Assembly: GCA_026418905.1 (NCBI GenBank)
Contig: JAOAAK010000041.1
Location: 20,619-84,618, forward strand
Direction: 5' to 3'
DNA from: Bacteroidales bacterium
Lineage (GTDB): Bacteria > Bacteroidota > Bacteroidia > Bacteroidales > DTU049
DNA length: 64,000 bases
Part shown: positions 34,532 to 56,521 of the stretch, piece by piece
How the letters are laid out: each line of letters starts with the position of its first letter
Numbering within the stretch: the stretch's first letter is position 1
Translations under genes and position numbers: made by a program
The notes under the pieces: generated by a model
Databases searched by the model: none
What the model was told of the DNA's origin: nothing
Seen by the model: the letters and a program-made list of their open reading frames with translations, nothing else

Positions 34532-35797
34532 TTAACTACCGAAATCATCAAAGGCTATGTTTTCCTGTGGAACACCTAAATCGTCCAACATTCGAAGTAC
34601 AGCTTGTAACATAGCTGGAGGCCCGCAAAGATAGTATTCTATTTCTTCGGGCTCTGGGTGAAACTTCAAGTAATTATCATAGGCTACTTGATGAATAAAA
34701 CCAGTAAGGCCATCCCAATTGTCTTCGGGTTTGGGTTCGGATAAAGCGACATAAAATTTAAAATTGGGAAATTCTTTTTCGATACGCTGAAAATCTTCAA
34801 GATAGAACAATTCACGTTTGGATCGTCCACCATACCAAAAAGTAGCCTTACGGTTTGTTCGTCGAGTAAGAAACAAATCAAAAATATGGGATCGCATAGG
34901 TGCCATGCCGGCTCCACCACCGATAAACATCATTTCATGTTGAGTTTCTTTGATATGAAATTCACCATATGGTCCAGAAACAATAACCTTATCTCCTGGT
35001 TTTCTTGAAAAAATGTAGCTTGAGCATAGGCCTGGAGGAACCTTCATAAAAGAGTTGGTTTTTTTATCCCATGGAGGTGTTGCAATACGTACATTAAGCA
35101 TGATAATATCGTTCTCGGCAGGATGATTTGCCATGGAATAGGCTCTTACTACGGGTTCTGTAATCTTTACCTTCAGATCCCATAATCCGTACCGATCCCA
35201 TTCATCTCGATATTCTTCTTCAACTTCAATATCTTTTTTATAATCAATTGTGATGTGTGGCGGAACTTCAATTTGAATATATCCTCCACTTTTGAAATTC
35301 AGTCGTTCACCTTCTGGCAATTTAAGTACAAATTCCTTGATGAATGTAGCGACATTACGATTAGAAACAACTTCACATTCCCATTTTTTGATACCAAAGA
35401 TTTCCTCTGGAACTTGGATGGAAAGATCCTGTCGTACTTTGACTTGGCAAGCAAGTCGCCAGTGATCCAAAATTTGTTTTCTATTGAAAAAGCCAACTTC
35501 GGTAGGTAGAATTTCTCCACCCCCACTTATCACTTGAACTCGGCAGGTACCGCATGTTCCACCACCTCCGCATGCAGAAGGTAGAAAAATGTTTTTTTCA
35601 CTTAGAGTTGATAATAAGCTATTTCCAGGCTGTACTTCTACTTTACGGTCTTCATTAATGGAAATGACAACATTGCCTTGAGGTGTAAGTTTCTTTTTAG
35701 CATAAAGCAATAGTGTAACCAGAAGCATGATAACAGACAGAAAAACCAGGATGCTAGCAATAATGGTTTGTCCGAATACGGATAAGAGAATTTCCAT
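34532..35797 (-). CDS. nqrF: Na+-translocating NADH:quinone oxidoreductase subunit F
   Basis: N-terminal TM helix, 2Fe-2S '[12 protein letters not shown]', FAD 'RAYSMANHP', NADH '[11 protein letters not shown]'. Confidence 0.93.
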
Positions 35798-35804
35798 ACA
35801 GCTA

Positions 35805-36422
35805 TTAGATTTTTATTCCAAAAAAACTCATGAAAGCAATTCCCATCAATCCGGTTGTTATGAAGGCAATACCGAGTCCTCTGAGAGGTGCTGGAACATT
35901 AGAGTATTGCATTTTTTCGCGAATTGCAGCTAAAGCAACAATCGCTAGAAACCAGCCGATACCAGATCCCAAGCCAAAAGAAATGGCTTCGCCTAACGTT
36001 TTGAGTTCTCTTTCTTGCATAAACAATGATGCCCCCAAAATAGCACAATTTACAGCAATAAGTGGTAGAAAGATTCCAAGCGCATTGTAAAGACCAGGGA
36101 AAAATTTTTCAATCACCATTTCTACTAGTTGTACCATGGCAGCAATGGTAGCAATAAACATGATAAAACTTAGAAAACTTAAATCTATCTCTTTTAGTCC
36201 AGGATTAATCCATGATAAAGCACCAGGAAGAAGAAAAAATTTATTTAGAAGAAAATTAAGTGGTACAGTAATGACTAAAACAAATATCACTGCAATTCCA
36301 AGTCCTGCACTGGTTTTTACAGTTTTAGAAACAGCCAAGTATGAGCACATGCCTAAAAAATAGGCAAAAATCATGTTGTCAATAAAAATGCTTCTCACAA
36401 ATATGTTGGCGAGATGTTCCAT
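35805..36422 (-). CDS. nqrE: Na+-NQR subunit E
   Basis: Polytopic, 205 aa, '[11 protein letters not shown]'. Positioned between nqrD and nqrF. Confidence 0.9.
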
Positions 36423-36427
36423 AGCAT

Positions 36428-37069
36428 TTAACTTTTATCAATTAATTGACGGAACTTACTTCTTTGTATCCAGATGATGATTCCAATGGTAATTAGAGCC
36501 ATGGGTGGCAGAATCATCAAACCGTTGTTTTCGTAACCAATTTCGTAAAAAACAGGGGGAATGACAGAATAACCAAATATGCTGCCTGATCCTAATAACT
36601 CTCTAAAGAAACTTACAATTACCAAAATGATTCCATATCCAGCACCATTGCCCAATCCATCTAAAAACGATTTCCATGGCTTGTTGGCCATGGCAAAAGC
36701 TTCTAATCTTCCCATCACAATGCAGTTGGTAATGATAAGGCCTACAAAAACGGAAAGTTGCTTACTTACATCGTAAACAAAAGCTTTCAATACTTGATCG
36801 ACTAGAATGACTAGAAATGCAATAACAATCAGCTGAACAATGATTCGAATACGTGGAGGAATGGTTTTTCGTATTAGAGATACAATTAAATTTGAAAAAG
36901 CAACTACGATTATCACAGCTATGGCCATAACAAGGGCAGGTTTCATTTTAACCGTAACGGCAAGAGCTGAACAGATACCCAAAACCTGAACAGTAATAGG
37001 ATTATTCAGATTTATGGGCTGTGTTATAAGTTTTCTGTTTTCTGATGAAAAAACATCATTGATTTTCAT
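36428..37069 (-). CDS. nqrD: Na+-NQR subunit D
   Basis: Polytopic, 213 aa, '[11 protein letters not shown]' and '[12 protein letters not shown]'. Confidence 0.9.
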
Positions 37070-37811
37070 GATGATATTTTTTTCTGTTTTTTTCTAAAAA
37101 AGGTTCGAAGAATTTGAGAGCTTTTTCAATCATATCGGTAGTTCCATTACTGGTAATAGTACCACCACTAATTGCATCTACATCGTGAAAGGGATCGAAT
37201 TGGGGATTGTTCTTCCCTCCCTTCACGAGGCGAACAGGTCGTAAGTCATTATTTTTGAAAATCTTTTTACCAGAAAATTGAGCCTGAAAAACAGGTGTAG
37301 AAATCTCGGCCCCTAAACCAGGTGTTTCACCTTTGTGATCAAATACTGCACCCTCGATGGTTTCAAAATCACTTTTCAGGGCCATATAACCCCAAATGGG
37401 CCCCCACAGTCCTAAACCATACATAGGGAGTACGTAAATAGTATCTTGATTTTTCTTTAGAACAAATACGGGTAATTGAGATTTTCCCTTCTCATGGTAA
37501 GTCTTGTAAGCTTCTTTAATGTTGACTTCAAAAGGAATAATTTCAGATGTTTTATTTTTATAATTGTAGGTGGAAACAATGTTACCGTTGTTGTCGACAA
37601 GGTATTCTGCAATGAGATGGCTCTTATAAATTTTTTCCGCGTTTTGTTTGTTGTTTTCTATGTGAGCACTATTTAAAATATATTGGATTTTTTCGGTTTT
37701 AATGTTAGCTTGTTGGAAAGGTTGTAAACCACTGGAAGCGAGAGCAAGCATGATACCCACAATAATAATAAGGATTGAACTATAAATAAAAATGTAACGG
37801 TTACTGAACAT
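37056..37811 (-). CDS. nqrC: Na+-NQR subunit C (FMN-binding)
   Basis: N-terminal TM helix, '[12 protein letters not shown]', 'ETPGLGAEI', and FMN-attachment-like '[10 protein letters not shown]'. Confidence 0.88.
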
Positions 37812-37821
37812 AACAAAGGGT

Positions 37822-39024
37822 TTAATTCAATTTAACATTTTGCATATTTAATCGTTTCATTCTTTTTCGAATGTGTCGTTGTATAACCATATGATCTATA
37901 AGAGGAGCAAAGACATTCATAAGAAGTATAGCCAGCATCATGCCTTCAGGATAAGCAGGATTGAGCACGCGAATCAAAATGGTAAAAACTCCGATCAGAA
38001 AACCATAGATTAACTTTCCACGAGGAGTTTGTGCAGCAGTGACGGGGTCAGTTGCCATGAAAACAGTTCCAAATGCAAAACCTCCTATGATAAGATGATA
38101 CCACGGTAGCATGGTCATATATGAATTCCCTTTCCAGAGATAAAAAACGGTGGCCATAAATAAGGCACCAACTACTGTACTAAGCATAATACGTAAGCTT
38201 CCCACACCAGTAACTACTAAAATAATAGCTCCCAGAAGAATCATAAGAGTAGATGTTTCACCAATTGAACCAGGTATAAAGCCTAAAAAAGCATCTATGG
38301 GTGGGTATAATTCATAAACTTTATCGATGTTGGGATCAAGGGCAGCCACAGCTAGAGGGGTAGGACCTGAGACAACATCCGCTGGTACGACCCATGGACT
38401 GTCGCCCGACATATGGGAAGGATAAGCAAAAAAGAGAAAAGCACGAGCTAGCAAAGCTGGATTCATGATGTTCATCCCCGTTCCACCAAAGGCTTCTTTA
38501 CCTATAAGAACAGCAAATGCTGTAGCTACAGCAACCATCCACAAAGGTATAGTTGGGGGAACAATTAAAGGAATAAGCAAACCACTTACAAGAAATCCTT
38601 CGTTTACTTCATGATGACGAACTTGTGCAAAAATAAATTCTATGGAAAGTCCTGTGATGTAAGTAACGATAATAATAGGTACCACTTTGACTAAACCAAA
38701 CCAAAACAATTTCCAGAAACCAACTTGTAACAATATGTCGGACCAATGAAGTCCTGCGTATTGCCTTTGATGCATGTAATGTTGAACTCCAACATTTAAG
38801 ATGCCAAAAAGCAGGGCAGGTATAAGCGCTAAAAGAACTATAGACATTACTCTTTTGCTATCGATAGCATCTCGGATATGGGAACCTGTCCCTGTGACTT
38901 TATTGGGAACAAAAAGAAAGGTTTCAAATGCATCAAATGTTGAATGTAGAAAATAAAGTTTACCTCCCTTTTGAAAATGTGGTTTTACGCGATCTAAGAA
39001 TATTCTTAATTTTTTCATTTGCAA
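37822..39024 (-). CDS. nqrB: Na+-NQR subunit B
   Basis: Polytopic, 400 aa, 'GGTGMNIMNPAL', 'VSGPTPL' (FMN site region), 'MATDPVT'. Confidence 0.9.
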   Translation of the reverse strand: MQMKKLRIFLDRVKPHFQKGGKLYFLHSTFDAFETFLFVPNKVTGTGSHIRDAIDSKRVMSIVLLALIPALLFGILNVGVQHYMHQRQYAGLHWSDILLQVGFWKLFWFGLVKVVPIIIVTYITGLSIEFIFAQVRHHEVNEGFLVSGLLIPLIVPPTIPLWMVAVATAFAVLIGKEAFGGTGMNIMNPALLARAFLFFAYPSHMSGDSPWVVPADVVSGPTPLAVAALDPNIDKVYELYPPIDAFLGFIPGSIGETSTLMILLGAIILVVTGVGSLRIMLSTVVGALFMATVFYLWKGNSYMTMLPWYHLIIGGFAFGTVFMATDPVTAAQTPRGKLIYGFLIGVFTILIRVLNPAYPEGMMLAILLMNVFAPLIDHMVIQRHIRKRMKRLNMQNVKLN

Positions 39025-39030
39025 ATGATT

Positions 39031-40386
39031 TTAATACCCTAGTTCCTTAATCATCATTAGAATACCATCGCGAATGATTTGTTGTGATTCGATCTTAGAG
39101 GCACAAACGAATTCGCACAGTGCAAAATCTTCTTCAATGACTTCATAAATACCTAATTTTTCCATCATGTCGATGTTTTTAGTAATAATAGCTTTGAGTA
39201 GATAGACAGGAAAAATATCAAAGGGAAAAACCTTGTCGTATTGATCACTGAGAATAAATGGTCTTTCACCACCATGATAATTGGTGTCGAGCCGATATTT
39301 TCTTTTTGGAAAAAGCCAGCTAAAAAAAGTGTGTGACGCACTATATTTGTTAAACCCTGGAGCAGCCCAACCCATAAATTCATAATAGTCTCCTTCTGGT
39401 ATGACTGTAATTTGTGTATCATGAAACATCAGAAAGCCATCTTTTTCAATTTTTGTTCCCGTCAATACATTTCCAGAAATAACACGAACGTTGTCTTGTA
39501 TTAAATTGTCCTTAAGTAAATTAGCAATTTGTCCTTCTGATGGAAAGAGATAAACACCTGTGGTTTTCAGTTCTGATCCTGTTAAGGCAAGTTGTCGGTA
39601 GAAAATTCTTTTTCCTGTATTAAAAACATAACCTAAAGCTACAACGTCTTGCGTGTTGAGTGTCCATACATATTCTCCTTTACGTAGAGGAGCAACGTGA
39701 TGTATATGTACACCAACATTTCCGGTTGGATGAGGACCATCAAACCATTGAATAAAAATTTGATCAGGTAAATTCTGATAAATATCAGAATTATTCTTTT
39801 TTACATGAAGGCTAAGAATTACACGTCCGGATGTAAGTTTTTGTAGCATTTTAAGTCCGACCAGGAAATGATCAAAGTTTGCTTGAATAAATGGATCAAA
39901 GGATATGGCAAGTGGAGCCGTGTCAAAACCAGTGATGAAAATGTCTCGCGGAGTGATGGAGGGATTGGCAAGAACTCCATAAGGTCTTTGTCTAATGAGA
40001 GGCCAGAAGCCAGATGTTAATAAAAATTCTATTATTTCTTCTTTTTGCATCTGATTTACTGACTGAATAGGAAAAACAGTATTATCAACAGGTTCAGTAG
40101 CTTCGATGACTATTTTTTCAAGGCGTCGTTTTTCACCTCGCGTGATTTTTTGTATTTTACCTGTCACTGGTGATGTTAAAACAATTTTTTCAATTTCTTT
40201 GTGTAAGACAATAGGTTGACCTGCCTTGACGGATTGGCCTTCTTCTACCAATAATTTGGGTTGTATGAATTTGATCACGTGGGGTTGAATGGCATAAAGA
40301 GTTGGTGTATATATTCGAGGGGTTAAATCGTTCACCTCACCCAATAAGGGGATATCAATACCCTTTTTTATCCGTATGACTTCCAT
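39031..40386 (-). CDS. nqrA: Na+-NQR subunit A
   Basis: First gene of the nqr operon. After trimming to ATG 40386 the N-terminus is 'MEVIRIKKGIDIPLLGE', as expected for NqrA. Length is about 451 aa. Confidence 0.88.
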   Translation of the reverse strand: MEVIRIKKGIDIPLLGEVNDLTPRIYTPTLYAIQPHVIKFIQPKLLVEEGQSVKAGQPIVLHKEIEKIVLTSPVTGKIQKITRGEKRRLEKIVIEATEPVDNTVFPIQSVNQMQKEEIIEFLLTSGFWPLIRQRPYGVLANPSITPRDIFITGFDTAPLAISFDPFIQANFDHFLVGLKMLQKLTSGRVILSLHVKKNNSDIYQNLPDQIFIQWFDGPHPTGNVGVHIHHVAPLRKGEYVWTLNTQDVVALGYVFNTGKRIFYRQLALTGSELKTTGVYLFPSEGQIANLLKDNLIQDNVRVISGNVLTGTKIEKDGFLMFHDTQITVIPEGDYYEFMGWAAPGFNKYSASHTFFSWLFPKRKYRLDTNYHGGERPFILSDQYDKVFPFDIFPVYLLKAIITKNIDMMEKLGIYEVIEEDFALCEFVCASKIESQQIIRDGILMMIKELGY

Positions 40387-40409
40387 GATTAATAATGAAT
40401 AAAATCGTG

Positions 40410-40417
40410 CAAAAATA
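40410..40417 (-). promoter_or_regulatory. Putative -7 box (TAnnTTTG) for the nqr operon
   Basis: Minus-strand 'tattTTTG' (plus-strand caaaaata), 23 nt upstream of the trimmed nqrA ATG. Confidence 0.3.
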
Positions 40418-40479
40418 CATTTTATTTGCTTTATTTTGCACATGAGTTATATAGGACATTTAAACCAAAAAAATTGATA

Positions 40480-46430: not shown

Positions 46431-47108
46431 ATGAGTAATAAAGGCAAGCTTATTGTTTTTGAAGGTATTGATGGTTCTGGCAAAACTACTCAGGCGCTAC
46501 TATTGGTCGAGTATTTGAAGAAAAAAAACATAACTTCAGAGTACTGTCATTTTCCAAGAGTGGATGTAAACTCTATATATTCTAATTTGATTAAGATTTT
46601 TTTACAAGGCAAATGGGGTCCTAAAGAGGAAATAGATCCCTATTTGATAGCATTTCTTTATGCTGGGGATCGTAAAGAGCTGGCTTCCTCTTTGCATGAA
46701 AAGCTGGGGCAGGGTATGTGGCTTGTATTGGATAGATACGTGATGTCTAATATGGCTTATCAAGGTGCTAGAATACCTGATAAGGATAAAAATGCTTTTT
46801 TCCAATGGCTTGAATATACCGAATTCCAATTGTTTAATCTTCCTAGACCTGATGTAACTTTTTTACTTCTTATGCCTTCTGAATTTACTGCGCAAAACTT
46901 GAAAAAAACGAGACCTCTCAAAGATCGTGCAACTGGCGTAGAACCCGACTTGTTTGAAAAGGATTCATCCTTTCAAAAAAAAGTGAAAGATACGTATCTT
47001 TACCTTGCAAGCAATGAAAAAAATATTACTGTCTTGGATTACTCGGTACAAAAAAGTGTACCTCCTCCTGAAGCAATACATATTGATATTTTACGTCAAC
47101 TTTTCTGA
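46431..47108 (+). CDS. tmk: Thymidylate (dTMP) kinase
   Basis: P-loop 'IVFEGIDGSGKTTQ', 'DRY..SN.AYQG'. Length is 225 aa. Confidence 0.85.
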   Translation: MSNKGKLIVFEGIDGSGKTTQALLLVEYLKKKNITSEYCHFPRVDVNSIYSNLIKIFLQGKWGPKEEIDPYLIAFLYAGDRKELASSLHEKLGQGMWLVLDRYVMSNMAYQGARIPDKDKNAFFQWLEYTEFQLFNLPRPDVTFLLLMPSEFTAQNLKKTRPLKDRATGVEPDLFEKDSSFQKKVKDTYLYLASNEKNITVLDYSVQKSVPPPEAIHIDILRQLF

Positions 47109-47184
47109 TATATGGAATAAGCGATAAAAAAAAGAAATGTATTTTTTTTATTTATTTTGCCTATTGAAATAGTAGATAGTCAAA

Positions 47185-47853
47185 ATGAATTTAATTGAGG
47201 AATTGTTCTCGGATGTCCACATACGGCATAGTTTGTATGCTTGTATCCAATGCGGAATCTGCACGGGCGTATGTCCGGCAGCTCAAATATACGATTACGA
47301 CCCAAGAATTCTTGTTAATCTTGTTCAAAAGAGAAATGAACAAGTTTTAACTGAGCTACTTCAGAGTGATTACATTTGGTATTGTGGTGAATGCATGTCG
47401 TGCAAGACACGATGTCCACGAGATAACACTCCTGGTGAAATAGTCATTGCTCTTCGTCAACTTTCGCAACGGAAAGGATATTTTGTTTCCTCTCGAAGAG
47501 GACGCCAGCAATATGTTATTCGTAAAACCATAGGTGAAAGCATTCTTCAGGAAGGATATTGTGTCTATTTCGATCATGTTGACCTCGATCGTTTTCCTGA
47601 ACAAGGACCTACATGGCAATGGGTTCGAGATCATCGGAATGAAATTCTTTCTAAGGTGGGTGCAAGTTATCAACAAAAAACAGCTGGTCCCATGAGGAAA
47701 ATTAGGGAGGAGGATCTTCAAGAACTGAAAAAAATTTTTGAAGTCACTGGGGCCAGCCAATTATTTCAACTGATTGATGATTATTCACGCAATGTCATGA
47801 TGGAAGAAAACAAGAGTGAAGAAGAATATATTCGCGAAATCTTTGAAAAATAA
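47185..47853 (+). CDS. HdrC-like 2x[4Fe-4S] iron-sulfur protein
   Basis: Two CxxCxxCxxxCP motifs: 'CIQCGICTGVCP' and 'CGECMSCKTRCP'. Length is 222 aa. It lies directly upstream of a CCG-domain protein. Confidence 0.75.
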   Translation: MNLIEELFSDVHIRHSLYACIQCGICTGVCPAAQIYDYDPRILVNLVQKRNEQVLTELLQSDYIWYCGECMSCKTRCPRDNTPGEIVIALRQLSQRKGYFVSSRRGRQQYVIRKTIGESILQEGYCVYFDHVDLDRFPEQGPTWQWVRDHRNEILSKVGASYQQKTAGPMRKIREEDLQELKKIFEVTGASQLFQLIDDYSRNVMMEENKSEEEYIREIFEK

Positions 47854-47860
47854 TGACGAT

Positions 47861-48919
47861 ATGAATATTTTTAAAGAACGCTACATGAAGGATATACCGG
47901 ATGATCACTTTTGGTTTGCTCGAAGCTGTATTCGTCAAACTTTTTTTCCTGGTGCTGAGCAGATGTTTCTTAAGATCATGCGAGAAAAACTTTTTAAAGA
48001 TGTTTACGATTCTCCTCATCATACCACATGTACAGGTATTGGATATCATAGTGATATTGTTCCATTTGAGACTATCATGACTGTCGTTGCTCGTCAATTT
48101 GCTTTAATGACAGAAGATGGTTATGAGCATGTAGCTATTAGCTGTGTAACAAGTTTTGGAATTTACCAAGAGGTCCTTGAAAAATGGGAATTGGAACCAG
48201 AACTATTAGAGAAAGCACGTACTTATCTCAGGCAAGCTACAGGAAGAGAATTTAAATTGCCTGTGGCTGCTGTCCATACTTCCGATATCATCTTTAAATT
48301 TCGTGAGGAAATAGCTCGGATTATGAAATATCCTCTCATCAATAGGTTCACTGGAAAACCTCTTAGAGTGGTAGATCATGTTGGTTGTCATTATGCTAAG
48401 ATGTTTCCTCAAAAAAGTATAGGAGGGGCAGAATACCCCTATGTATTGGCAGGGATGGTTGAGGCATGGGGAGGTCAACCTGTAGATTATCCAGAACGTA
48501 GACATTGTTGTGGTTTTGGTTTTAGAAATTACCTCATCAAATCAAATCGGAGTTACTCATTGACTCATTCTAAAATAAAGTTTGAATCTATGTATCCATA
48601 CCGTCCGGATTTTATCATAACCAATTGTCCTGGTTGTGCTATGTTTATGGACAGGTGGCAATATGTGCTTGCTGAAACCGAAGGAAAAACTTACGGAGAA
48701 GAACCACGGAAAGGAATACCGGTGCTGACTTTCGAAGAAACAGCTGCTTTGGTGATTGGTTACGATCCTTGGGAGATCGGTTTGCAAATGCATCAAGTTT
48801 CGGTAGAGCCGTTACTTGATAAAATGGGAGTTTCTTATGATCCTGACGGAAAATTTCTTGACAAAAACGGAAATTACTTAGATAAACCTCAACGACCATC
48901 GGTTTTAAAATGTAACTAG
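47861..48919 (+). CDS. HdrB-like protein with two CCG domains (N-terminal degenerate, C-terminal intact)
   Basis: C-terminal 'C-x39-CCG-x38-CPGC' is intact. The N-terminal copy reads 'C-x33-C-T-G ... C-V-T-S' and is missing two Cys. The GTG extension at 47816 was trimmed to ATG 47861, 8 nt after the hdrC-like stop. Confidence 0.75.
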   Translation: MNIFKERYMKDIPDDHFWFARSCIRQTFFPGAEQMFLKIMREKLFKDVYDSPHHTTCTGIGYHSDIVPFETIMTVVARQFALMTEDGYEHVAISCVTSFGIYQEVLEKWELEPELLEKARTYLRQATGREFKLPVAAVHTSDIIFKFREEIARIMKYPLINRFTGKPLRVVDHVGCHYAKMFPQKSIGGAEYPYVLAGMVEAWGGQPVDYPERRHCCGFGFRNYLIKSNRSYSLTHSKIKFESMYPYRPDFIITNCPGCAMFMDRWQYVLAETEGKTYGEEPRKGIPVLTFEETAALVIGYDPWEIGLQMHQVSVEPLLDKMGVSYDPDGKFLDKNGNYLDKPQRPSVLKCN

Positions 48920-48920
48920 C

Positions 48921-49934
48921 ATGGAGAAATCATGTTTTGACGTCATTATTGTGGGTGGTGGCATAGCAGGGATGCAAACTGCCATTTACCTTTCAGAAAT
49001 GAATTTTAAAGTTGCCCTATTTGAAAAACAAAATCGCCTGGGTGGGAAATTGCTAGAATACGATCGACTTTTTCCTTCTTTTGAAAAAGCTGAAGATATT
49101 TTAAATGAATTGAATCAAAGAATCCAGAGTTTACCCATTGAATTATTTGTAGGAGAAAACGTAGAAAAAGTTGAAAAAAAAGATGGCTTTTTCTTCATTC
49201 AAACAGAATCGGGTCGTATCGATTCGCAAGCCCTTGTTCTGGCTTTTGGTTTTGAATTTTTCGATGCAACCTTAAAAGAAGAGTACGGATATAGAGTAGT
49301 TGAAAATGTTTATACGAGCGTAGATATCGAAAAAATGATCAAAAATCCTTTGTCGTTGCAGCAACGCTTTTCTTCAAAACCACAAGCTTTTGGTTTTGTT
49401 CACTGTGTTGGTTCAAGAGATGAAAAGGTAAAGAACAATTACTGTAGCAAAGTATGTTGCATCACTGCTATAAAGCAAGCTATTGAACTGAAAGAAATTT
49501 TTCCAACTTCGGAAATATTTTGCTTTTACATGGATTTGCGTCTCCACGAATTGATGTTTGAAACAATATACAAACGGGCACAGATGGATTACGGAATTCA
49601 TTTCGTTCGCGGTAAAATATCGGAGGTTGCTCAGGGGCGAGACGGAAAAGTTGTTTTAAAAGTGGAAGATACACTTTTATCTATGCCCCTCTCTATGGAA
49701 TTGGATGCGTTGGTCTTGATGATTGGCATGGAAGGTAAAAGACCGACTTTGTCGAATGATTTATCTTTTAATTTGTTTGATTTTGTTGATGTGGGTGATC
49801 TTTATATTTACAAAAATTGGAAAAAAGGGGTTTTTTGCGTAGGAGCTTGTAAGGGGCCTCGCTCAGTTCAAGAAACCTTACAGGATGCTTCTCAAACAGC
49901 CATGGAAGTTTATCGATATTTGAAAGTTAAATAA
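48921..49934 (+). CDS. Short HdrA-like FAD/[4Fe-4S] flavoprotein
   Basis: 'VIIVGGGIAGMQTA..FEK..LGGK' dinucleotide fold, 'HCVGSRDEKVKNNYCSKVCC' Cys cluster, 'VFCVGACKGP'. Only 337 aa, so no extra ferredoxin domains. Confidence 0.75.
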   Translation: MEKSCFDVIIVGGGIAGMQTAIYLSEMNFKVALFEKQNRLGGKLLEYDRLFPSFEKAEDILNELNQRIQSLPIELFVGENVEKVEKKDGFFFIQTESGRIDSQALVLAFGFEFFDATLKEEYGYRVVENVYTSVDIEKMIKNPLSLQQRFSSKPQAFGFVHCVGSRDEKVKNNYCSKVCCITAIKQAIELKEIFPTSEIFCFYMDLRLHELMFETIYKRAQMDYGIHFVRGKISEVAQGRDGKVVLKVEDTLLSMPLSMELDALVLMIGMEGKRPTLSNDLSFNLFDFVDVGDLYIYKNWKKGVFCVGACKGPRSVQETLQDASQTAMEVYRYLKVK

Positions 49935-49942
49935 GAAAGTTC

Positions 49943-50281
49943 ATGTCGACCAGATTTGGATATTCTTCTGTTCAACCAAGGAAAAAAGAAATTCGTTTTC
50001 CTCTTCCTTCCCTTTATGTGGATATTCTATGCCAAGAACCATCGTTGAAATTATGTATTCATTGTGGTACGTGTAGTTCTGTTTGTGTTGCCAATCGAAT
50101 CCAAGAAACACGTTTTCATAAGATTCCTATCATGCTTCGTTATGGAATGACTGAGGAATCACTTACGTATGCTCGTCGTTGTTTACTCTGTGGCACTTGC
50201 ATACTGACTTGCCCACGTAATGTGAACATTAGACACGTGATGTTTTTATTAAAACAATGGGATTATGAACATTCATTATGA
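49943..50281 (+). CDS. Small 2x[4Fe-4S] ferredoxin-domain protein
   Basis: 'CIHCGTCSSVC' and 'CLLCGTCILTCP'. Length is 112 aa. It overlaps the next gene by 17 nt. Confidence 0.65.
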   Translation: MSTRFGYSSVQPRKKEIRFPLPSLYVDILCQEPSLKLCIHCGTCSSVCVANRIQETRFHKIPIMLRYGMTEESLTYARRCLLCGTCILTCPRNVNIRHVMFLLKQWDYEHSL

Positions 50282-52109
50282 CCCTTTTGTTCTTCCATTT
50301 TTTCTGGGGGTGTTGTTTTGGTTGACCCTCTTTGTATGGAGAATTTTTTCATGGATAGATGAAATCCCTACGGGGGACAGAAGGCAAGTATGGTTCAATT
50401 TGTTTAGTCGAAAATTGTTCTTAGCTTTTGAATTAATTTTCTTAGAAAGTCTTTTACATCGTCGGATTTTTCAAAAAAACATTCTACTGGGATACATGCA
50501 TATGAGCATTGCATTCGGATGGTTTATGCTCATTGTAGTTGGGTCAATTGAATCGAAATTTGGACAACATGAGGTATTCAACATGCCATGGGATCCTGTG
50601 TTTTTTAATTATTTTGAACCTCAGCGTGTCATTGAGTCATTTGGTTGGATTTTTCATTTACTAATGGATTTTTTCTTACTGATGGTATTGAGTGGTGTTT
50701 TATTGGCAATAATTAAACGTTTTCGTTCTCATTGGTTTGGTTTGCCACGCAATACACGTTTACCTTTGTTTGATAAGGTAGCATTGTATTCTTTATGGCT
50801 TATTTTCCCTGCACGTTTTTGGGTTGAATCACTCAATGCTGCTAATCATCAAAATGGAGGTTTTTTGACTCAACCGTGTGGTGATTGGTTGGCAACTTTT
50901 CTTCCTGTGCAATCGTTAGAATACCCCTCGTGGTGGGCATATTCTATCGTGCTTGGGATGTTTTTTGTGGCGCTACCATTTAGTCGCTATATGCATATCG
51001 TGACTGAGCCTTTTTTGATTTTTTTTCGAACGCTTGGAGCAAGACCATTGGAAGAATACAGTGGTCTGAGAAAAATGGAAGTATATGCATGCAGCCGATG
51101 TGGCATTTGCATCGAAGCTTGTCAACTTCATCAAGACGCTGCTATTCATGGAATGCAGGCTTCTTACTTGATTCAGAGCATTCGTTATGGTTTTTCTTTT
51201 AAAAATGAACTAAAGCTGTGTTTACAGTGTGGTCGTTGCACTTTGGCTTGTCCTGTTGAAATTGAATTAGTGAGCATGCGTCATATGGCTAGGGTTAACA
51301 CCTATCCTTCTTTTGAATTATCCTTACAACGACTCAGAGATAATAATGATATTTTGCCAACTCACGTGATGTATTTTGCGGGGTGTATGACGCGGTTGTC
51401 TCCATCTATCATTAGATCTTTTCTTTTTTTACTTGATCGAGCGGGCATTACGTATGATTATTTGGATGAGAAAGGTGGAATGTGTTGTGGGAAGCCTCAA
51501 CTTCAGCTAGGGCAAAAAAATTTAGCCAGGCAAATTATCGAGCAAAATAAAAGTATTTTTCTTCAGCATCCATCGATGGTGCTTGTGACTACTTGTCCTA
51601 TTTGCTTGAATATTTTTCGATGTGAATATCATTTACCAAAACATGTGATGCATCACAGCGAACTTCTTGCCATGCTTATCGAGGCAGGTAGACTTCCTAA
51701 ATTAAAGGGTCAAAGGAAAGTAATGTATCATGACTCATGCGAGCTGGCTTTCCACTTACAAATAACTACACAACCCCGAGAAGTATTGCGTTCCTGTGTT
51801 AATTTGCAAAACCATAATCCAGGCCGCGAGCATTGGTGTTGTGGTGGAAGCACTGCCAGCTTGAATTTACCTTACGAAAAGCGTCAGCAGTTGGCGCTTA
51901 AAACTATTCGTCGTCTTATCAATAACGAGACTGAAGTTTTGGCGACGGCTTGTCCACTTTGTAAAATTACTTTTAAATCAGGGCAATTAGTTCCGGTGCA
52001 AGACATAGCTGAAATTTATGCTCAAGAACTTCGATCTACGACAACGAGCAAAGACTTTCATCCTTCCTTTGATGTTGATTCGGTGAAATATGGAGTTAAG
52101 ATTTATTAA
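50265..52109 (+). CDS. Fusion of a NarI/HdrE/DsrM-like membrane domain with an HdrD/DsrK-like 2x[4Fe-4S] + 2xCCG domain
   Basis: About 5-6 N-terminal TM helices with conserved His ('LLHRR', 'YMHMSIAFGW', 'IFHLL', 'SRYMHIV'). Clusters 'CSRCGICIEAC' and 'CLQCGRCTLACP'. Two intact CCG domains ('AGC..MCCGKP..TCPIC' and 'DSC..WCCGGS..ACPLC'). Confidence 0.75.
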   Translation: MNIHYDPFVLPFFLGVLFWLTLFVWRIFSWIDEIPTGDRRQVWFNLFSRKLFLAFELIFLESLLHRRIFQKNILLGYMHMSIAFGWFMLIVVGSIESKFGQHEVFNMPWDPVFFNYFEPQRVIESFGWIFHLLMDFFLLMVLSGVLLAIIKRFRSHWFGLPRNTRLPLFDKVALYSLWLIFPARFWVESLNAANHQNGGFLTQPCGDWLATFLPVQSLEYPSWWAYSIVLGMFFVALPFSRYMHIVTEPFLIFFRTLGARPLEEYSGLRKMEVYACSRCGICIEACQLHQDAAIHGMQASYLIQSIRYGFSFKNELKLCLQCGRCTLACPVEIELVSMRHMARVNTYPSFELSLQRLRDNNDILPTHVMYFAGCMTRLSPSIIRSFLFLLDRAGITYDYLDEKGGMCCGKPQLQLGQKNLARQIIEQNKSIFLQHPSMVLVTTCPICLNIFRCEYHLPKHVMHHSELLAMLIEAGRLPKLKGQRKVMYHDSCELAFHLQITTQPREVLRSCVNLQNHNPGREHWCCGGSTASLNLPYEKRQQLALKTIRRLINNETEVLATACPLCKITFKSGQLVPVQDIAEIYAQELRSTTTSKDFHPSFDVDSVKYGVKIY

Positions 52110-52232: not shown

Positions 52233-53303
52233 TTAGTCTACGATGATGATGGGTTTTGTATGGAGTTTGTTTTGGCTGAAGATTTGCAAGATATAATATC
52301 CTTTTTCTATTTGTGGGAGGGTAAAGTTTTTTTGATCGTATGAAATCAATTCGCATACATTTTTTCCGAGAATGTTGGATAGATATACTCTTTCTATATT
52401 AGGGAGGAGGATTGAGATATTTTCGCCTTTTTTGACCGGGTTGGGGAAGACAGTAAGTGTAAGTTCGTCATTTTGGTCAAGGATTTGGGCATGGATTTCA
52501 TATTTTAACCACCACATTTTTAAAAGGGTATTTGAGGAGGGTTCATATTCAGCTTTAAAGACATGATTGCGTTTGGAGGGTGTCCATGCGTGGATGTAGA
52601 GCAACGTATCGTACAAAAGCAATGTATCTAAGATAGTATTGCTTAAGAATTTGATTTTGAGACTGTCTTCATAATAAATGAATTCTTTGACCAAAAGGCA
52701 ATTTGAAAATGTTCCAGCAGGTGTAATGATAGTACCACTTCCTACGGCGGTTAGATATTTGAAAGCATGACGTGTGTAGAATGTATCAATGTCGTTGGGG
52801 AAGGCGTTGAGGGCGATGGTCCAAGTATAATTTTGAGAAATAGAGTCGTACAAGGTGAATGGAGTTTTCATAAGCCATTCGGCAGGTTGAATGGTTACGT
52901 TGGTAGGTGCTCCGCCGAAGCTACCGCGGAAGCCAACGGCGGTGAAGCCTTGACTGTCGGTACGAAAAAACATGTAGCCGAAATGGTTTTGATAAGGGGC
53001 TATTCCTCCAGGGCCTCCATAGAGCATGCCAGGGCCGTAGGTATAGACATTAGATGTAGGGAAATTTGTTTGATAAGGTAGATTTTGAGTTGCGCCGTAA
53101 GCAGATACTTGCAGCGTATCTTGGACTAGAGTTGAAAAATCCCACGTTGCACCCGTTTGTTGATAGTCAAAAAGAACTTGGGGAGAGACGTCTACTCCGA
53201 AAACAAAAGTGTCACCCGGTAGAGGCAAAGAACCAAATTGAATGATTTGGCAATTTAACGACAAAGAAAAAACTACTATCAATGGAAATAAAAAATTTTT
53301 CAT
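52233..53303 (-). CDS. Secreted protein with T9SS type-A CTD
   Basis: Signal peptide 'MKNFLFPLIVVFSLSLNCQ' (the TTG extension to 53321 was trimmed). C-terminal 'LTVFPNPVKKGENISILL..VYLSNILGKNV..KGYYILQIF'. Confidence 0.65.
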   Translation of the reverse strand: MKNFLFPLIVVFSLSLNCQIIQFGSLPLPGDTFVFGVDVSPQVLFDYQQTGATWDFSTLVQDTLQVSAYGATQNLPYQTNFPTSNVYTYGPGMLYGGPGGIAPYQNHFGYMFFRTDSQGFTAVGFRGSFGGAPTNVTIQPAEWLMKTPFTLYDSISQNYTWTIALNAFPNDIDTFYTRHAFKYLTAVGSGTIITPAGTFSNCLLVKEFIYYEDSLKIKFLSNTILDTLLLYDTLLYIHAWTPSKRNHVFKAEYEPSSNTLLKMWWLKYEIHAQILDQNDELTLTVFPNPVKKGENISILLPNIERVYLSNILGKNVCELISYDQKNFTLPQIEKGYYILQIFSQNKLHTKPIIIVD

Positions 53304-53435
53304 AAAGATTTGTTTTAGCAAAAATAGTTTTTTTTTAAAAAAAAAGCATAACTTTAATTCTCAAAACATACTTTTATTTAAGCTGAGAAACAAAATAATG
53401 AGAAAAATGTAGCATTGTTTTATGGTAGAGTTCGA

Positions 53436-55301
53436 TCATTGTTGGGAGCATCTACGGAATTTATTTTTTTTGCGAAGTTGTTCTAGTTCTTTTTTTAGAT
53501 CTTCGATTTCTTTTTGTTGAGTTTTGATTGCTTCAAGGAGTAAGATAGATAGGCGGTCGTATTTTATTCCAAGGATTTCGCCATGATTGCCATATTGGAC
53601 AAGCATGGGGAAGGTTTTTGCTACTTCTTCAGCTATAAGGCCCAGATCTGTTTCATGGGATGTAGTCCATTCGAAAGTAACGGGTTGTAATAGTTGAAGT
53701 TTTTGAGGTTGGATCTCTAGTGGTCTTATGTTAGATTTCCACTGGCTGGAGGAGAAAGTAATCCATGCGTTAGAAATGGCCCTATTTCCATCACCTGGAT
53801 TACCTACTTGCAGAGCGTATGTGGGTTGAGTGGTTTGTATGCCTACTTCACCGCTGGGCTTGATATAAACAACAGGTTTGATTACCCAAGATGAAGCGAT
53901 TGTTATTTCGTTTCCGATGGTAATGTTAGGTTCGGGATTAACATATTTAGCAAGAAAAATCCAGTCGTAGCTATTGCGACAACAGGAATATAAATAAATG
54001 TGCTGTAATGTTTTCCCAGTTGCAGATACTTGTGAAACATAAGAATTATTGAAGAAAAACTTACCGATATTTCCATCATATGTAACCTCGGCTTTAAACC
54101 AATTGGTAACATTCTGGTTTTGAAGATTATTATTTACGACATCAAGTAAATAAGTATTAAATCCACCATTCCAAGGTCCCCAAAAAACAGTGGTAGCGGG
54201 TACAGCAATAAACTGATCCCATGAAGTGCATCCCCATAAACAATTATTACCAGCATAAGTAATGGCTCTATGCTTAATTCGATAAGTAGGCATTGTTGGA
54301 ACGATACCACCATTATTGATATTACGTGCAAATAGATTGGGGGATGATCCCCAACAAGTGATTATTCCATTGGAAATGGTATAATTACTTGACCATTGTT
54401 GCCATTTAATAGTGTTAATCGAAGAGCCTACGAAATCATCAAAGAAAACAAAGGTGCTATCTCCATTGGCTCCAGGGCCCAGATTAGGGAAGCCATATTC
54501 GAGGTAAATTGAATCGATTCTTCCACCGTAGATAGTAGGGATACGGATCCATATCCAAGTTTGAGGGGTGTTGCATCCATCTTCTATCCAGTAGTAAATG
54601 GGGGTTCCGTTGGGTGTGTAGAAGCGAATATCATCGCAATCGGGCTGCATTTTTCCACTTGCAATAAGGCTTTGTGTGTTAAGAATCAGCAAGATTTGAT
54701 AGTTTAAAAGCGTATCAGTTCGATTGGTTGCATCAATGTAAATAGGACGTCGATAATGAGCAGGTGTGTACTGGGGTGTTTCAATGATAAGTGGTTCTAA
54801 ATTGTTATTGTCATTGGTAATGTGGACAAGGGCTGATGGTTGAGATTGATGAATGCCAATGTTTCCTGAAGCAGAAATACGCATTTGTTCGGTGGAATAG
54901 GTTCGGAAGATCAAGTGAGAGGAGTCGATAGTTCCGAGGTAATGAGTAGAAGGGTTTGTGTTAGCGTTTCCTGTGAGGTACCATGCTTTGGTATAGCCGA
55001 CTTTTTCCCATTGATTACCGTTCCAGAAGTAGAAGCCTTTTCCATCTGCTCCGAGTCCTGAGATGAGTTCATTTTCATTGTAAATAAGCAATGAAAGAAC
55101 TTCTGGTCCGTTAATAGGGGGATTAAATTGAGTGGTAGAATTAAGCGATACACGGGGAATGAGAATGCCTTTATCGGTGAATTGAATATCGAGAGCAGCA
55201 CTAGGATGTGGTTGCGATCCTATTGGTGAAATAGCAACGCCCTGGGAAAATAGAATGAAACAATGAAAAAAAACTACCCAAATGAATGTAATTTTTTTCA
55301 T
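53436..55301 (-). CDS. Surface protein: conserved N-terminal module + DUF2341/LamG-like region + tail-fibre Peptidase_S74 intramolecular chaperone domain
   Basis: N-terminal 'PSAALDIQFTDKGILIPRV'. 'YRRPIYID..CDDIRFY..YYWIED..TWIWIRIP..IYLEYG' and 'FVFFDDF' are DUF2341/LamG-like. C-terminal 'SSSQWKSNIRPL..LQPVTFEW..LGLIAEEV..GIKYDRLSILLLEAIK..EIEDLKKELEQL'. Confidence 0.65.
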   Translation of the reverse strand: MKKITFIWVVFFHCFILFSQGVAISPIGSQPHPSAALDIQFTDKGILIPRVSLNSTTQFNPPINGPEVLSLLIYNENELISGLGADGKGFYFWNGNQWEKVGYTKAWYLTGNANTNPSTHYLGTIDSSHLIFRTYSTEQMRISASGNIGIHQSQPSALVHITNDNNNLEPLIIETPQYTPAHYRRPIYIDATNRTDTLLNYQILLILNTQSLIASGKMQPDCDDIRFYTPNGTPIYYWIEDGCNTPQTWIWIRIPTIYGGRIDSIYLEYGFPNLGPGANGDSTFVFFDDFVGSSINTIKWQQWSSNYTISNGIITCWGSSPNLFARNINNGGIVPTMPTYRIKHRAITYAGNNCLWGCTSWDQFIAVPATTVFWGPWNGGFNTYLLDVVNNNLQNQNVTNWFKAEVTYDGNIGKFFFNNSYVSQVSATGKTLQHIYLYSCCRNSYDWIFLAKYVNPEPNITIGNEITIASSWVIKPVVYIKPSGEVGIQTTQPTYALQVGNPGDGNRAISNAWITFSSSQWKSNIRPLEIQPQKLQLLQPVTFEWTTSHETDLGLIAEEVAKTFPMLVQYGNHGEILGIKYDRLSILLLEAIKTQQKEIEDLKKELEQLRKKNKFRRCSQQ

Positions 55302-55384
55302 AGTTAAGAATTTTTTTAAGTAAAGCAAATATATAAAAAAATTTAATTATACTATACACTTCAATAAAAAAAATAATAAAAAAA

Positions 55385-56521
55385 TTATCCGGCAATGCTG
55401 ATGGTTTGTAGGAGTTGTTTGTTGATAAGAGTAATGCCTTTGGGTGTGTCAGAAATGATATTTTCATTTTTAAAGTCTGAGAGGATACGGACTGCATTTT
55501 CATTACTCATTGCGCTGAGTTCTGCTAAATCTTTTCGAGAAATGAATGAGGGTATGAGGTCAGAGTTAAATACGCGTGATAGATAGAGCAATGTTTCAGC
55601 CATGCGACCGGTGGTTTGTTTGAGACTTAAGCATTTTAACCGATTGAAGAGAATATCGTAGTTATCGCACAGCCATTTGGTAATGGCTTTGTGAAATTGG
55701 GGATTTTGGTTAAGGATACGCAAGACGGTTTGTTTTTCGATCAAGAATGCAGTAGTTGGAATAAGTGCAATGGTGGTAAAATAATAGCTATTGCCATAAA
55801 GGGATGAGAGGCTGATGAATTCGAAAGGTACACTGATCATAAAAGAATAGCTTTTTCCGTGTAAACCTTCGACAAACGATTTGGTAGCACCTTTAGCAAG
55901 CAAGATAAAATAAGATGTATAAGCACCTTGTTTTCCTAGAGTTTCACCTTTTTTAAATGTAATAGGGTTCTTCAGTAATTGAATAATGTCTGAATCGGTG
56001 AGCCCGAAAGGTTTAAGCCATTCGATCAGACCATGATAATTTTTTTTAATTTGTTGAAAGAATTCCTCATCCGGTAAGGAAAGTTCTCTTTGAGAGATGG
56101 GTCTTAGTTTCTTGAGAATCAAAAAAGTGGAGAATTTTTCTGCAATTGACTTTAAAAGTAAATGTTCTTCTGGCAAAAAGATGCCCTTATCGCATTTCAC
56201 AGGTCGAGTATAAAAAATCCTTAGTTCACCTATTACTTTGTCGTATTCTTTGAGGGGATAAGATATTTTGAGTTCAGTTCGGGTAAAACTTGATCGATGA
56301 TATATTTTATCACCCAAAATAATTTCGGCTTCACAAATATCTTCGTATTGCCAACCTTTGGGTATAATGTGGAGAATATTGTCAATAACGTCTTCTATGT
56401 TTTGATCGTAATTTGAAAGAGCCTGTTCGATTTCGTAAAGGCAGAGTAATTCCTTAGCTCTTTCAAATAATGCATCGGGGGAATGAAAGTCGTAATGTCC
56501 GTCTTCCTGCATGTAAGTCAA
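55385..56521 (-). CDS. Crp/Fnr-family transcription regulator with a ~170-aa N-terminal sensor-like extension
   Basis: C-terminal cNMP-binding-like barrel ('FKKGETLGKQGAYTSYFILLAKG') and HTH ('ISRKDLAELSAMSNENAVRILSDFKNENII'). The N-terminal region 'CLYEIEQAL..IIPKGWQYEDICEAEIILGD..GELRIFY..GIFLPEEHLLLKSIAEK' is extra. Confidence 0.7.
   Translation of the reverse strand: MTYMQEDGHYDFHSPDALFERAKELLCLYEIEQALSNYDQNIEDVIDNILHIIPKGWQYEDICEAEIILGDKIYHRSSFTRTELKISYPLKEYDKVIGELRIFYTRPVKCDKGIFLPEEHLLLKSIAEKFSTFLILKKLRPISQRELSLPDEEFFQQIKKNYHGLIEWLKPFGLTDSDIIQLLKNPITFKKGETLGKQGAYTSYFILLAKGATKSFVEGLHGKSYSFMISVPFEFISLSSLYGNSYYFTTIALIPTTAFLIEKQTVLRILNQNPQFHKAITKWLCDNYDILFNRLKCLSLKQTTGRMAETLLYLSRVFNSDLIPSFISRKDLAELSAMSNENAVRILSDFKNENIISDTPKGITLINKQLLQTISIAG

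Follow-up and report, generated by a model that had tools for sequence, protein, structure and literature searches.

Layout and distribution of the operon

The DNA analysed here is a stretch of 64,000 nucleotides (nt) from a Bacteroidales bacterium (assembly GCA_026418905.1, contig JAOAAK010000041.1, positions 20,619 to 84,618 of the forward strand), which is referred to below as the window. At positions 47185-52109, the list of open reading frames (ORFs) of the window shows five tightly packed genes on the plus strand, with products resembling subunits of heterodisulfide reductase (Hdr) and of the sHdr systems of sulfur oxidisers. We refer to these genes and their proteins as C1, B1, A, fd and F (Table 1). 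Neighbouring genes are separated by 7 nt (C1-B1), 1 nt (B1-A), 8 nt (A-fd) and -17 nt (fd-F), the last of these junctions measuring -17, -4, +1 or +5 nt in relatives. A preliminary description of the window, made from the sequence alone, had reported five co-directional genes with these domains, and the ORFs, coordinates, junctions and domain calls all agree with it. The ORF of B1 opens at a GTG at 47816; since orthologues measure 352-357 amino acids (aa), the ATG at 47861 is indicated as the probable true start.

The operon is real, far beyond what chance would produce, as confirmed by the conservation of its order and of its cofactor ligands. All five genes are found in the same order in 46 of 53 related loci (51 from contigs representing one genome per species, plus two look-ups), and every predicted ligand is kept in 94-100% of the aligned sequences, namely eight Cys in C1, four Cys in A, eight Cys in fd and, in F, eight cubane Cys, 5 + 5 Cys of the CCG (non-cubane-cluster) domains, His65, His79 and His244. 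B1 is the most conserved subunit, with 59-67% identity across loci. The flanks, in turn, vary among lineages, and because gene order is conserved while the flanks are unrelated, the operon is a self-contained module. Clustering of the flanking genes revealed only lineage-specific synteny (RsgA, polyprenyl synthase, QueF/YhhQ), besides a MarR-family gene that is described below; a close relative with a B1 that is 80% identical has the synteny of the window. Five of the seven exceptions to the five-gene order are cut by contig ends, and only two loci truly deviate. In a Prevotellaceae metagenome-assembled genome (MAG; locus L004, 4142-5956), the F homologue stands alone among the housekeeping genes prs, ruvX, def and dnaX. 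In L042 (8203-11407, UBA6397), C1 and B1 run into F, with A and fd missing, an arrangement that could be a deletion or a misassembly.

Far from being rare, the locus belongs to a widespread family of Bacteroidota that is already annotated in databases. More than 7,000 database relatives of F were found. The top 120 are without exception full-length, with identities of 40% or more, and those that are named come from Bacteroidota, Bacteroidales, Tenuifilaceae or Salinivirgaceae; an exact-sequence look-up of the F protein of the window found no record. B1 has 2,796 database relatives, often labelled "heterodisulfide reductase subunit B". Searching a library of 1.84 billion representatives of 50%-identity clusters gave 656 B1-like clusters with E-values up to 1e-3, of which 51 had E ≤ 1e-30. 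B1-like proteins are thus a narrow family, with the divergent full-length members forming a continuum of B1-type patterns. Carriers of the operon include gut MAGs labelled Muribaculaceae, Rikenellaceae, Prevotellaceae and Cryptobacteroides-type, and sediment Tenuifilaceae and Salinivirgaceae. As far as has been seen, it is restricted to Bacteroidota and one sediment sister clade.

Some individual records are irregular. Bacteroidales-type operons are also found in "cleanbin" MAGs named Anaerotignum, Eggerthellaceae, Lachnospiraceae, Methanomethylophilaceae and Bulleidia (L014, L016, L020, L040, L053), for which bin contamination is a more likely explanation than transfer. Among near relatives, the A gene of L055 (10099-11124) and the glutamate dehydrogenase gene of L054 (15659-16636) are each called as two pieces, suggesting frameshifts, whether from sequencing errors or in pseudogenes. 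One database relative of B1 (P0123, 438 aa, on a 1.8-kb contig) has a precomputed Skp1_POZ domain (PF03931) besides CCG, and is either an odd fusion or a gene-calling artefact.

Table 1. Features of the operon, in window coordinates.
Feature	Position	Strand	Length or residues	Description
Presumed promoter region	47109..47184	+	76 nt	AT-rich stretch between tmk and C1, from reading of the sequence
C1	47185..47853	+	222 aa	HdrC-like, two predicted clusters
B1	47861..48919	+	352 aa	sHdrB1-type CCG protein
A	48921..49934	+	337 aa	short HdrA-type flavoprotein, predicted FAD/[4Fe-4S]
fd	49943..50281	+	112 aa	predicted two-[4Fe-4S] ferredoxin, truncated sHdrC2/HdrC-like; 17-nt overlap with the start of F
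F, whole protein	50265..52109	+	614 aa	membrane::2x[4Fe-4S]::2xCCG fusion
F, membrane domain	50265..51044	+	aa 1-260	five predicted transmembrane helices
F, Fer4 dicluster	51078..51263	+		Fer4_8/Fer4_10, about 2e-7
F, two complete CCG domains	51372..51977	+	aa 370-571	non-cubane-cluster domains, HdrD/HdrB/sHdrB2-like

Affinities of the subunits

For comparison with sHdr, the sHdrA sequence was rebuilt from the alignment to the PDB entry 6tjr, the Hyphomicrobium protein was found with it, and its locus (L058) was fetched. The gene order there is DsrE3C-sHdrC1-B1-A-H-C2-B2-hyp-LbpA (hyp, hypothetical protein), with TusA, SoxT, Sox and a radical-SAM gene nearby. The preliminary description had noted a likeness to sHdr loci, and this likeness is strengthened by C1 and B1. 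C1 matches Fer4_8 (2.4e-11), the NCBIfam HdrC model (5.4e-24, under its cut-off) and the PDB HdrC 5odc_C (1e-15); with BLASTP it aligns over its full length to Hyphomicrobium sHdrC1 (residues 2-218 with 30-244, 1e-26), and to sHdrC2 only over the Fer4/cluster region. Its eight cluster Cys, C126 and H150 are kept in 96-100% of 48 sequences. By alignment, C1 is of the sHdrC1 type, and it is encoded first, as in sHdr.

B1 is recognised by CCG (2.6e-10), by HdrB models (3.7e-39) and by PDB HdrB (1.8e-29), and its best BLASTP match in the Hyphomicrobium locus is sHdrB1 (4e-32 over residues 8-326), the match to sHdrB2 covering the C-terminal half only (4e-12). In the alignment, B1 and sHdrB1 have a non-classical N-terminal CCG domain, where (S/T)C-T replaces CC and C-x-TSFG replaces CxxC (in B1, TC-T for CC and SCVTSFG for CxxC), and both have a CCGFGFR motif. 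These three features are absent from sHdrB2, methanogen HdrB and F, all of which have the classical pattern. The non-classical pattern is kept in 96-98% of 49 sequences, and B1 is an sHdrB1-type protein with one non-classical N-terminal and one complete C-terminal CCG domain.

The fourth gene had been described as encoding a di-cluster ferredoxin of 112 aa. The clusters are borne out by two CxxCxxCxxxC motifs and by a match to Fer4_9 (5e-9), and all eight Cys are 100% conserved, but the label proved too general: fd matches the HdrC model TIGR03290 weakly (1.2e-7), its best BLASTP match in the sHdr locus is sHdrC2 (34% over 74 aa, 2.7e-8), and it is more specifically a truncated sHdrC2/HdrC-like subunit.

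A carries HCVGSRDEKVKNNYCSKVCC at residues 161-180, and C162, C175, C179 and C180 are 100% conserved. It matches HdrA models at up to 2.6e-63, and aligns over its full length both to the sHdrA crystal structure 6tjr (residues 8-330 with 4-336, 3e-40) and, by BLASTP, to Hyphomicrobium sHdrA (9e-48). Its alignment to methanogen HdrA is limited to the thioredoxin-reductase-like parts (about 147-195 and 322-558 of 5odc_A), and A has neither the DCxxC motif nor the three Fe-S domains of methanogen HdrA. The comparison with the short sHdrA made in the preliminary description therefore stands for domain architecture, which A has in common with sHdrA, but not for close kinship with the Hyphomicrobium protein: over residues 98-330, A is 34-36% identical to methanogen HdrA versus 27% to Hyphomicrobium sHdrA. 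The phylogeny of the HdrA-like protein that had been proposed was run as a small neighbour-joining tree of PDB sequence fragments, excluding QmoA/B and type II sHdrA, in which A formed its own clade, a separation that is only indicative.

The N-terminal 260 aa of F are polytopic and without a Pfam match. Hydropathy and the positive-inside rule predict five helices, which place the N-terminus outside and the C-terminus inside. An AlphaFold2 model of F built from 61 sequences (predicted local distance difference test score, pLDDT, 89.7; predicted template modelling score, pTM, 0.84) has the EtfD of M. smegmatis (9ojn) as its top and sole full-length Foldseek match (E 1.6e-18, 739 aligned columns, TM-score normalised to the query 0.64). 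The next matches, to LutA (the second) and HdrB, concern the CCG part. The quinone coupling that had been proposed is supported by this full-length structural match to a menaquinone reductase and by the invariant His79 and His244. Together with His65, which is likewise invariant, these lie at the cytoplasmic face. On the outer side, no His is invariant or co-varying; no more than 34-44% of sequences have His there, and its position shifts. A second (distal) heme was rejected for lack of a conserved or co-varying outer-side His pair. Because of this distribution, F would bind a single proximal heme b through His79 and His244 and have a non-electrogenic quinone site, as in EtfD.

In the cytoplasmic part of F, the ligands of the Fer4 dicluster (C276, C279, C282, C286, C319, C322, C325 and C329) are invariant. 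The CCG match (3e-19) falls in two stretches, with the predicted ligands C374, C407, C408, C444 and C447 in the first and C492, C525, C526, C563 and C566 in the second, and here the motifs are classical, with complete CC and CxxC in both domains and with CPIC as the first CxxC. As all ten CCG Cys are kept and there is no His in the first CxxC, the predicted non-cubane pair looks like the catalytically competent HdrB/HdrD/sHdrB2 type. The best NCBIfam matches of F are LdhH (4.7e-26, 91 bits against a cut-off of 800), TfrB (7.7e-25) and GlpC (6.6e-17, 61 bits against 278).

Neighbouring genes and regulators

Accessory genes were sought with phmmer, using as single-sequence queries proteins of the Hyphomicrobium locus (DsrE3C, sHdrH, LbpA, TusA, SoxT, the LipS-like radical-SAM protein, the LipT-like protein, the sHdrR-like protein and three hypotheticals) against six-frame translations of the 64-kb window and of 57 related loci (+/-10 kb). 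No homologue of sHdrH, LbpA, DsrE3C, TusA, SoxT, LipS/LipT or sHdrR was found in the window or the 57 loci (rhodaneses were not searched for), the sole match being a classical GcvH with ESVKA in L028. A canonical sHdr locus with lbpA and dsrE just outside the operon can accordingly be dismissed within this range. The Pfam scan of the unassigned ORFs of the window showed nothing sulfur-related and, together with phmmer, confirms the earlier statement that no LbpA, DsrE, TusA or Sox genes lie in the window. EtfAB genes were likewise absent from the operon and its vicinity in the loci examined.

In the sediment sister clade (B1 41%, A 38% and F 33% identical), the genes run C1-B1-A-(82-aa ferredoxin)-fd-F, with an orphan GcvH/LbpA-like gene starting 46 nt after F. 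The lipoyl-lysine motif of this gene, ETGKWVG, is like ESGKWVG of Hyphomicrobium LbpA and unlike ESVKA of GcvH. The operons with the extra ferredoxin between A and fd are on sediment metagenome contigs (L063, 12131-15082, and L064), and their neighbours include a corrinoid Fe-S protein of the CdhD/AcsC type and MoaA, which suggests that the host may be an anaerobe with the Wood-Ljungdahl pathway.

In 29 gut loci, a MarR-family gene (Pfam MarR 4.6e-13) lies directly upstream of C1 on the same strand. Its end coincides or overlaps with the start of C1, and the unit in these loci comprises six genes (for example L012, 6299-6793, and L017, 6079-6573). A single Cys, at position 21 (VKQCM), is present in most copies, with Tyr in its place in two. 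A one-Cys MarR protein is compatible with thiol-based redox control, and by analogy it recalls thiol-sensing regulators of the MarR/OhrR type. The window itself has no MarR gene upstream of the operon. It does encode, at 55385-56521 on the minus strand, a Crp/FNR-type regulator (cNMP_binding and HTH_Crp_2) whose N-terminus is extended by ~180 aa of unassigned sequence. This regulator gene directly follows F, in convergent orientation, in the close relative L054; in the window, two genes of type IX secretion system (T9SS) type (52233-53321 and 53436-55328) are inserted between it and F.

As previously described, the operon is flanked by tmk (46431-47108) and T9SS-cargo genes and lies in a genome with an NQR. 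The six-gene NqrA-F operon, encoding the Na+-translocating NADH:quinone oxidoreductase (NQR), is located at 34532-40443 (minus strand), ~7 kb upstream of the Hdr-like operon. Its position is kept in the relative L054; the NQR was read from the translations and this syntenic relative, and it confirms that the host has a quinone-based respiratory chain. Farther out are genes for a T9SS plug protein, an aromatic amino-acid lyase, the Crp-type regulator and glutamate dehydrogenase. Transketolase is apparently encoded in separate C-terminal and N-terminal halves (5384-6337 and 7733-8587, both on the minus strand; translations only), with a VWA-domain gene (6349-7806) between them. The start of the operon, with its promoter, is presumed to lie in the stretch between tmk and C1. 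A scan for the sigma-70 consensus found 12 sites where 18.8 were expected, and the promoter and terminator scan gave no usable signal.

Interpretation and comparison with known systems

With a little less than even confidence, we favour the reading that the operon encodes one membrane-attached redox complex, a third architectural variant of sHdr, which would most likely pass electrons from a reduced sulfur compound or thiol to menaquinone. In this proposal, C1, B1 and A would form a soluble core, with A probably dimeric as in sHdrA. The substrate site would be on B1, with one non-classical and one classical non-cubane Fe-S site, A with its FAD and [4Fe-4S] cluster would be the hub, and fd would bridge A to F. 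F would be the wire to the menaquinone pool, through a pair of non-cubane clusters, a pair of cubane clusters and a single heme b on the cytoplasmic side. Electrons would run from the B1 site through the clusters of C1 to the FAD of A, and on through fd and the non-cubane and cubane clusters of F to heme b and menaquinone. The reduced sulfur or thiol oxidised on B1 might be a sulfane sulfur or dithiol bound to a protein or cofactor, and the quinone step, with its single proximal heme, would be non-electrogenic. The conserved HdrD-like CCG pair of F would take the place of sHdrB2, and may serve as a second, disulfide-handling site as well as an electron entry point.

The direction from substrate to quinone is favoured because the potential of menaquinone is high, because a single proximal heme is apparent, and because type II sHdr and EtfD provide precedents. 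At about -74 mV, menaquinone readily accepts electrons from thiols or sulfane sulfur but is poorly suited to reduce most disulfides. For EtfD and the related EMO, electrons have been shown to pass from a cytoplasmic flavoprotein via non-cubane clusters, cubane clusters and heme b to (methyl)menaquinone (PMC13083937; bioRxiv 10.64898/2026.08.18.745454). The preliminary description had posited a quinone-coupled thiol/disulfide or sulfane-sulfur complex. Whereas the quinone part of this claim is supported, we infer the sulfur or thiol substrate from the sHdrB1 signature, the HdrD-like site of F, the LbpA-like gene of the sister clade and the one-Cys MarR protein.

Several observations weigh against this reading. 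The main counter-evidence is that the LbpA and sulfur-transferase set is missing from the window and the 57 loci; in the published sHdr-LbpA systems, sulfur transferases are said always to be present (PMC11094781). The LbpA-like neighbour is found in only one distinct locus of the sister clade (L063 and L064), the member L059 being without it, and the NCBIfam GcvH model recognises it at 135 bits, above the cut-off of 117. Among the hosts are many fermentative anaerobes of the gut, which are not known as sulfur oxidisers. As far as sequence comparison goes, A is only 27-28% identical to Hyphomicrobium sHdrA, no closer than to methanogen HdrA, and the best family-model matches of F are to LdhH, TfrB and GlpC, all of them far below the cut-offs.

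Other functions would use the same parts differently. The complex could run in reverse, as a menaquinol-dependent reductase of (hetero)disulfides, polysulfides or trisulfides of the HdrDE/DsrMK type, with the site on F, the site on B1 or both reducing a disulfide as respiratory acceptor or for thiol repair in anaerobic Bacteroidota. We consider this unlikely, even though the hosts are mostly anaerobes, the MarR regulator with one conserved Cys is co-located in the 29 gut loci, and the CCG motifs of F are complete as in catalytic HdrB and HdrD, without the non-catalytic substitutions of EtfD (PMC13083937). Only the proximal heme site is conserved, and no loop driven by the proton-motive force, like that of the twin heme of the Syntrophus aciditrophicus EMO (SaEMO), is evident; B1 and C1 are like oxidative sHdr subunits, and the cluster contains no gene for a DsrC-like or other carrier. 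Moreover, at its potential, menaquinol needs an additional driving force to reduce common disulfides (-140 to -290 mV). Less probable still is flavin-based electron bifurcation or confurcation, where the FAD of A would split electron pairs between the branch of fd, F and menaquinone and a second branch, consisting of C1-B1 or of a ferredoxin or flavodoxin from outside, and quinone reduction would be coupled to a reaction that is uphill by itself. A is homologous to bifurcating HdrA, retains the FAD fold and the CxGxRD...CSxxCC cluster, and has the identity to methanogen HdrA given above, and the flavoprotein is the starting point of two distinct Fe-S arms (C1-B1 and fd-F). A nevertheless lacks DCxxC and the N-terminal, inserted and C-terminal ferredoxin domains, which provide the low-potential branch and the electron input of HdrA, and neither the operon nor its surroundings encode MvhD, a hydrogenase, a formate dehydrogenase or an NAD(P)H-binding module. 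To our knowledge, sHdrA, which is just as short, has no established role in bifurcation.

Improbable to a further degree is a dehydrogenase that does not act on sulfur, in which CCG would only relay electrons, and an organic substrate or reduced carrier protein would reduce menaquinone, as in the Lut, Glc, Glp, LdhH and succinate:quinone enzymes. The preliminary description had named a Lut/Glc/Glp-type oxidase among the possible identities of the locus. Besides the family-model matches of F and LutA as its second Foldseek match, this could be argued from the HdrF proteins of Desulfobacterium autotrophicum, which adjoin glpAB or etfAB (PMC2702500), and from the non-cubane clusters of EMO and EtfD, which are pure electron carriers (PMC13083937; bioRxiv 10.64898/2026.08.18.745454). 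We reject the Lut/Glc/Glp-type assignment itself, as none of the matches comes near its family cut-off and partner genes are lacking: no LutB/C, GlcD/E, GlpA/B, LDH or EtfAB gene is in the operon or recurs in its flanks. B1, too, carries motifs specific to sHdrB1, and we know of no organic-acid site in HdrA-type flavoproteins. Finally, a decaying or chance cluster without joint function, to which L004 with F alone, L042 without A and fd, and the split A gene of L055 might point, has a negligible probability and is rejected. Order, spacing and every cofactor ligand are kept in 46 or more loci from several families of Bacteroidia, B1 is equally well conserved throughout and has thousands of database homologues, and the unusual B1 pattern is itself conserved. 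Loss of the HdrA-like or CCG Cys in orthologues, which had been suggested as the mark of a decaying locus, is not what the alignments show.

A bolder form of the sulfur-to-menaquinone reading is that the operon represents a third sHdr type, which oxidises sulfane sulfur or persulfide anaerobically and straight into menaquinone, and which may do so without a dedicated set of LbpA and sulfur transferases. This is unlikely. We know of no oxygen-independent route of sulfane-sulfur oxidation in anaerobic Bacteroidota. If true, there would be an unrecognised detoxification of, or energy gain from, sulfide-derived sulfur in Bacteroidota, including abundant gut families, with oxidation coupled, for example, to fumarate reductase or cytochrome bd.

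No paper characterising this cluster of Bacteroidota was found in the literature searched; one preprint does no more than mention "a complete HDR system" in isolates of Bacteroidota, with a speculation on sulfide detoxification (10.1101/2023.09.28.559987). The kinds of component are all known, as is the pairing of an sHdr core with a membrane EMO from type II clusters. What is new is the architecture, without sHdrH, B2/B3 and EtfAB and with translational coupling between a C2-like ferredoxin and a membrane protein whose two CCG motifs are complete, together with its restriction, as far as seen, to Bacteroidota and the sediment sister clade and its occurrence in gut anaerobes without canonical accessory genes nearby. 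The routine annotation "heterodisulfide reductase", which is borrowed from methanogens, would be corrected to an sHdr-type core with a quinone module of EtfD/EMO type, and the known sHdr architectures would increase from two to three. Through the operon, the redox chemistry of sulfur or thiols can also be linked, in a testable way, to the respiratory chain that anaerobic Bacteroidota use in sulfide-rich habitats. F may furthermore be a natural case of EMO-like non-cubane clusters with the full catalytic Cys set, and could inform on the switch between catalysis and electron transfer.

Among known systems, DsrMK(JOP) is an assignment that we reject, given 35 bits with the DsrK model against a cut-off of 400 and no dsr genes in the window. 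The homologous A, B and C subunits of HdrABC-MvhAGD (5odc) give the highest raw scores (A 8e-51, B 2e-26 to 2e-29, C 1e-15), but the HdrA of that complex is about 650 aa long with three extra domains that are missing in A, no donor of the hydrogenase, MvhD or Fdh type is present here, the N-terminal CCG of B1 is non-classical, and matches to the NCBIfam Hdr models are all far under the cut-offs. HdrDE of Methanosarcina is similar in having a membrane b-type cytochrome, an HdrD that is an HdrC::HdrB fusion with two complete CCG motifs, and a quinone-like carrier. It differs in comprising two polypeptides with a di-heme HdrE, in using methanophenazine and CoM-S-S-CoB, and in having no association with HdrA/B/C-like genes, whereas F is a fused polypeptide with a His pair on the cytoplasmic side only, and the window has no methanogenesis genes. 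HdrDE is placed in a clade separate from EMOs (bioRxiv 10.64898/2026.08.18.745454).

Fused HdrE::HdrD proteins are already known as HdrF, EMO and EtfD (PMC2702500, PMC13083937). HdrF of Desulfobacterium autotrophicum has the same fusion of transmembrane, HdrC-like and HdrB-like parts, is encoded beside cytoplasmic flavoprotein dehydrogenases and has a proposed link to quinone (PMC2702500); it is set apart, by description only, by its partners GlpAB or EtfAB and by the selenoproteins among its members (PMC2702500). EtfD is a menaquinone reductase with five helices, one heme b (His78/His241) and two cubane clusters, plus a linear [3Fe-4S] cluster resulting from Thr in place of Cys and a His-capped non-cubane cluster (PMC13083937). 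SaEMO has a NarI-like domain and three hemes, and accepts electrons from ETF (electron-transfer flavoprotein) at its non-cubane clusters (bioRxiv 10.64898/2026.08.18.745454). F, like EtfD and EMO, is a single polypeptide with a five-helix NarI-like domain, an HdrC-like domain for two cubane clusters and two CCG domains, and, as in EtfD, distal heme ligands are not conserved and an invariant His pair is positioned like His78/His241, where heme b would be bound. However, F is only 17% identical to EtfD and has no long disordered C-terminal tail, its 5 + 5 CCG Cys are complete where EtfD has Thr for Cys and the His cap and SaEMO is one Cys short, and its partners would be an HdrA-type flavoprotein and a ferredoxin instead of EtfAB.

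The sHdr systems are defined in surveys by C1B1AHC2B2, or by C1B1AHB3 plus etfAB (PMC11094781; PMC12345210), and these published definitions would not register the present cluster. Type I is represented by shdrC1B1AHC2B2-lbpA of Hyphomicrobium denitrificans (L058), with identities of only 25-34%. The two have in common the full-length sHdrC1 match of C1, the non-classical pattern and CCGFGFR of B1, the alignment of fd with the cluster-binding part of sHdrC2, and the short architecture of A with its four-Cys cluster motif (sHdrA about 340-350 aa). They differ in that B1 has 352 aa and a complete C-terminal CxxC, whereas sHdrB1 has 466 aa and one Cys there; sHdrH is absent here, A being followed directly by fd; the counterpart of C2 has 112 aa instead of 260; the membrane-anchored F stands in for soluble B2; and the neighbourhood lacks LbpA, DsrE3C, TusA, SoxT and lipoate-assembly genes.

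A further parallel in layout is type II (shdrC1B1AHB3-etfAB-emo), which is found in sulfur oxidisers of the Bacillota, Chloroflexota and Actinobacteriota (PMC11094781). Soluble Hdr and membrane-bound HdrDE modules had been presented as normally alternative solutions, which is too strong, as type II clusters contain a membrane EMO (PMC11094781). By its published description, type II has the C1-B1-A core order and, within the cluster, an HdrE::HdrD-like membrane EMO with proposed delivery to menaquinone (PMC11094781), and F has the architecture and fold of such an EMO. The present operon is without sHdrH, soluble sHdrB3, EtfAB and nearby LbpA or sulfur-transferase genes, and has, in its own right, a 112-aa HdrC2-like ferredoxin right before a membrane protein that carries two complete CCG motifs.

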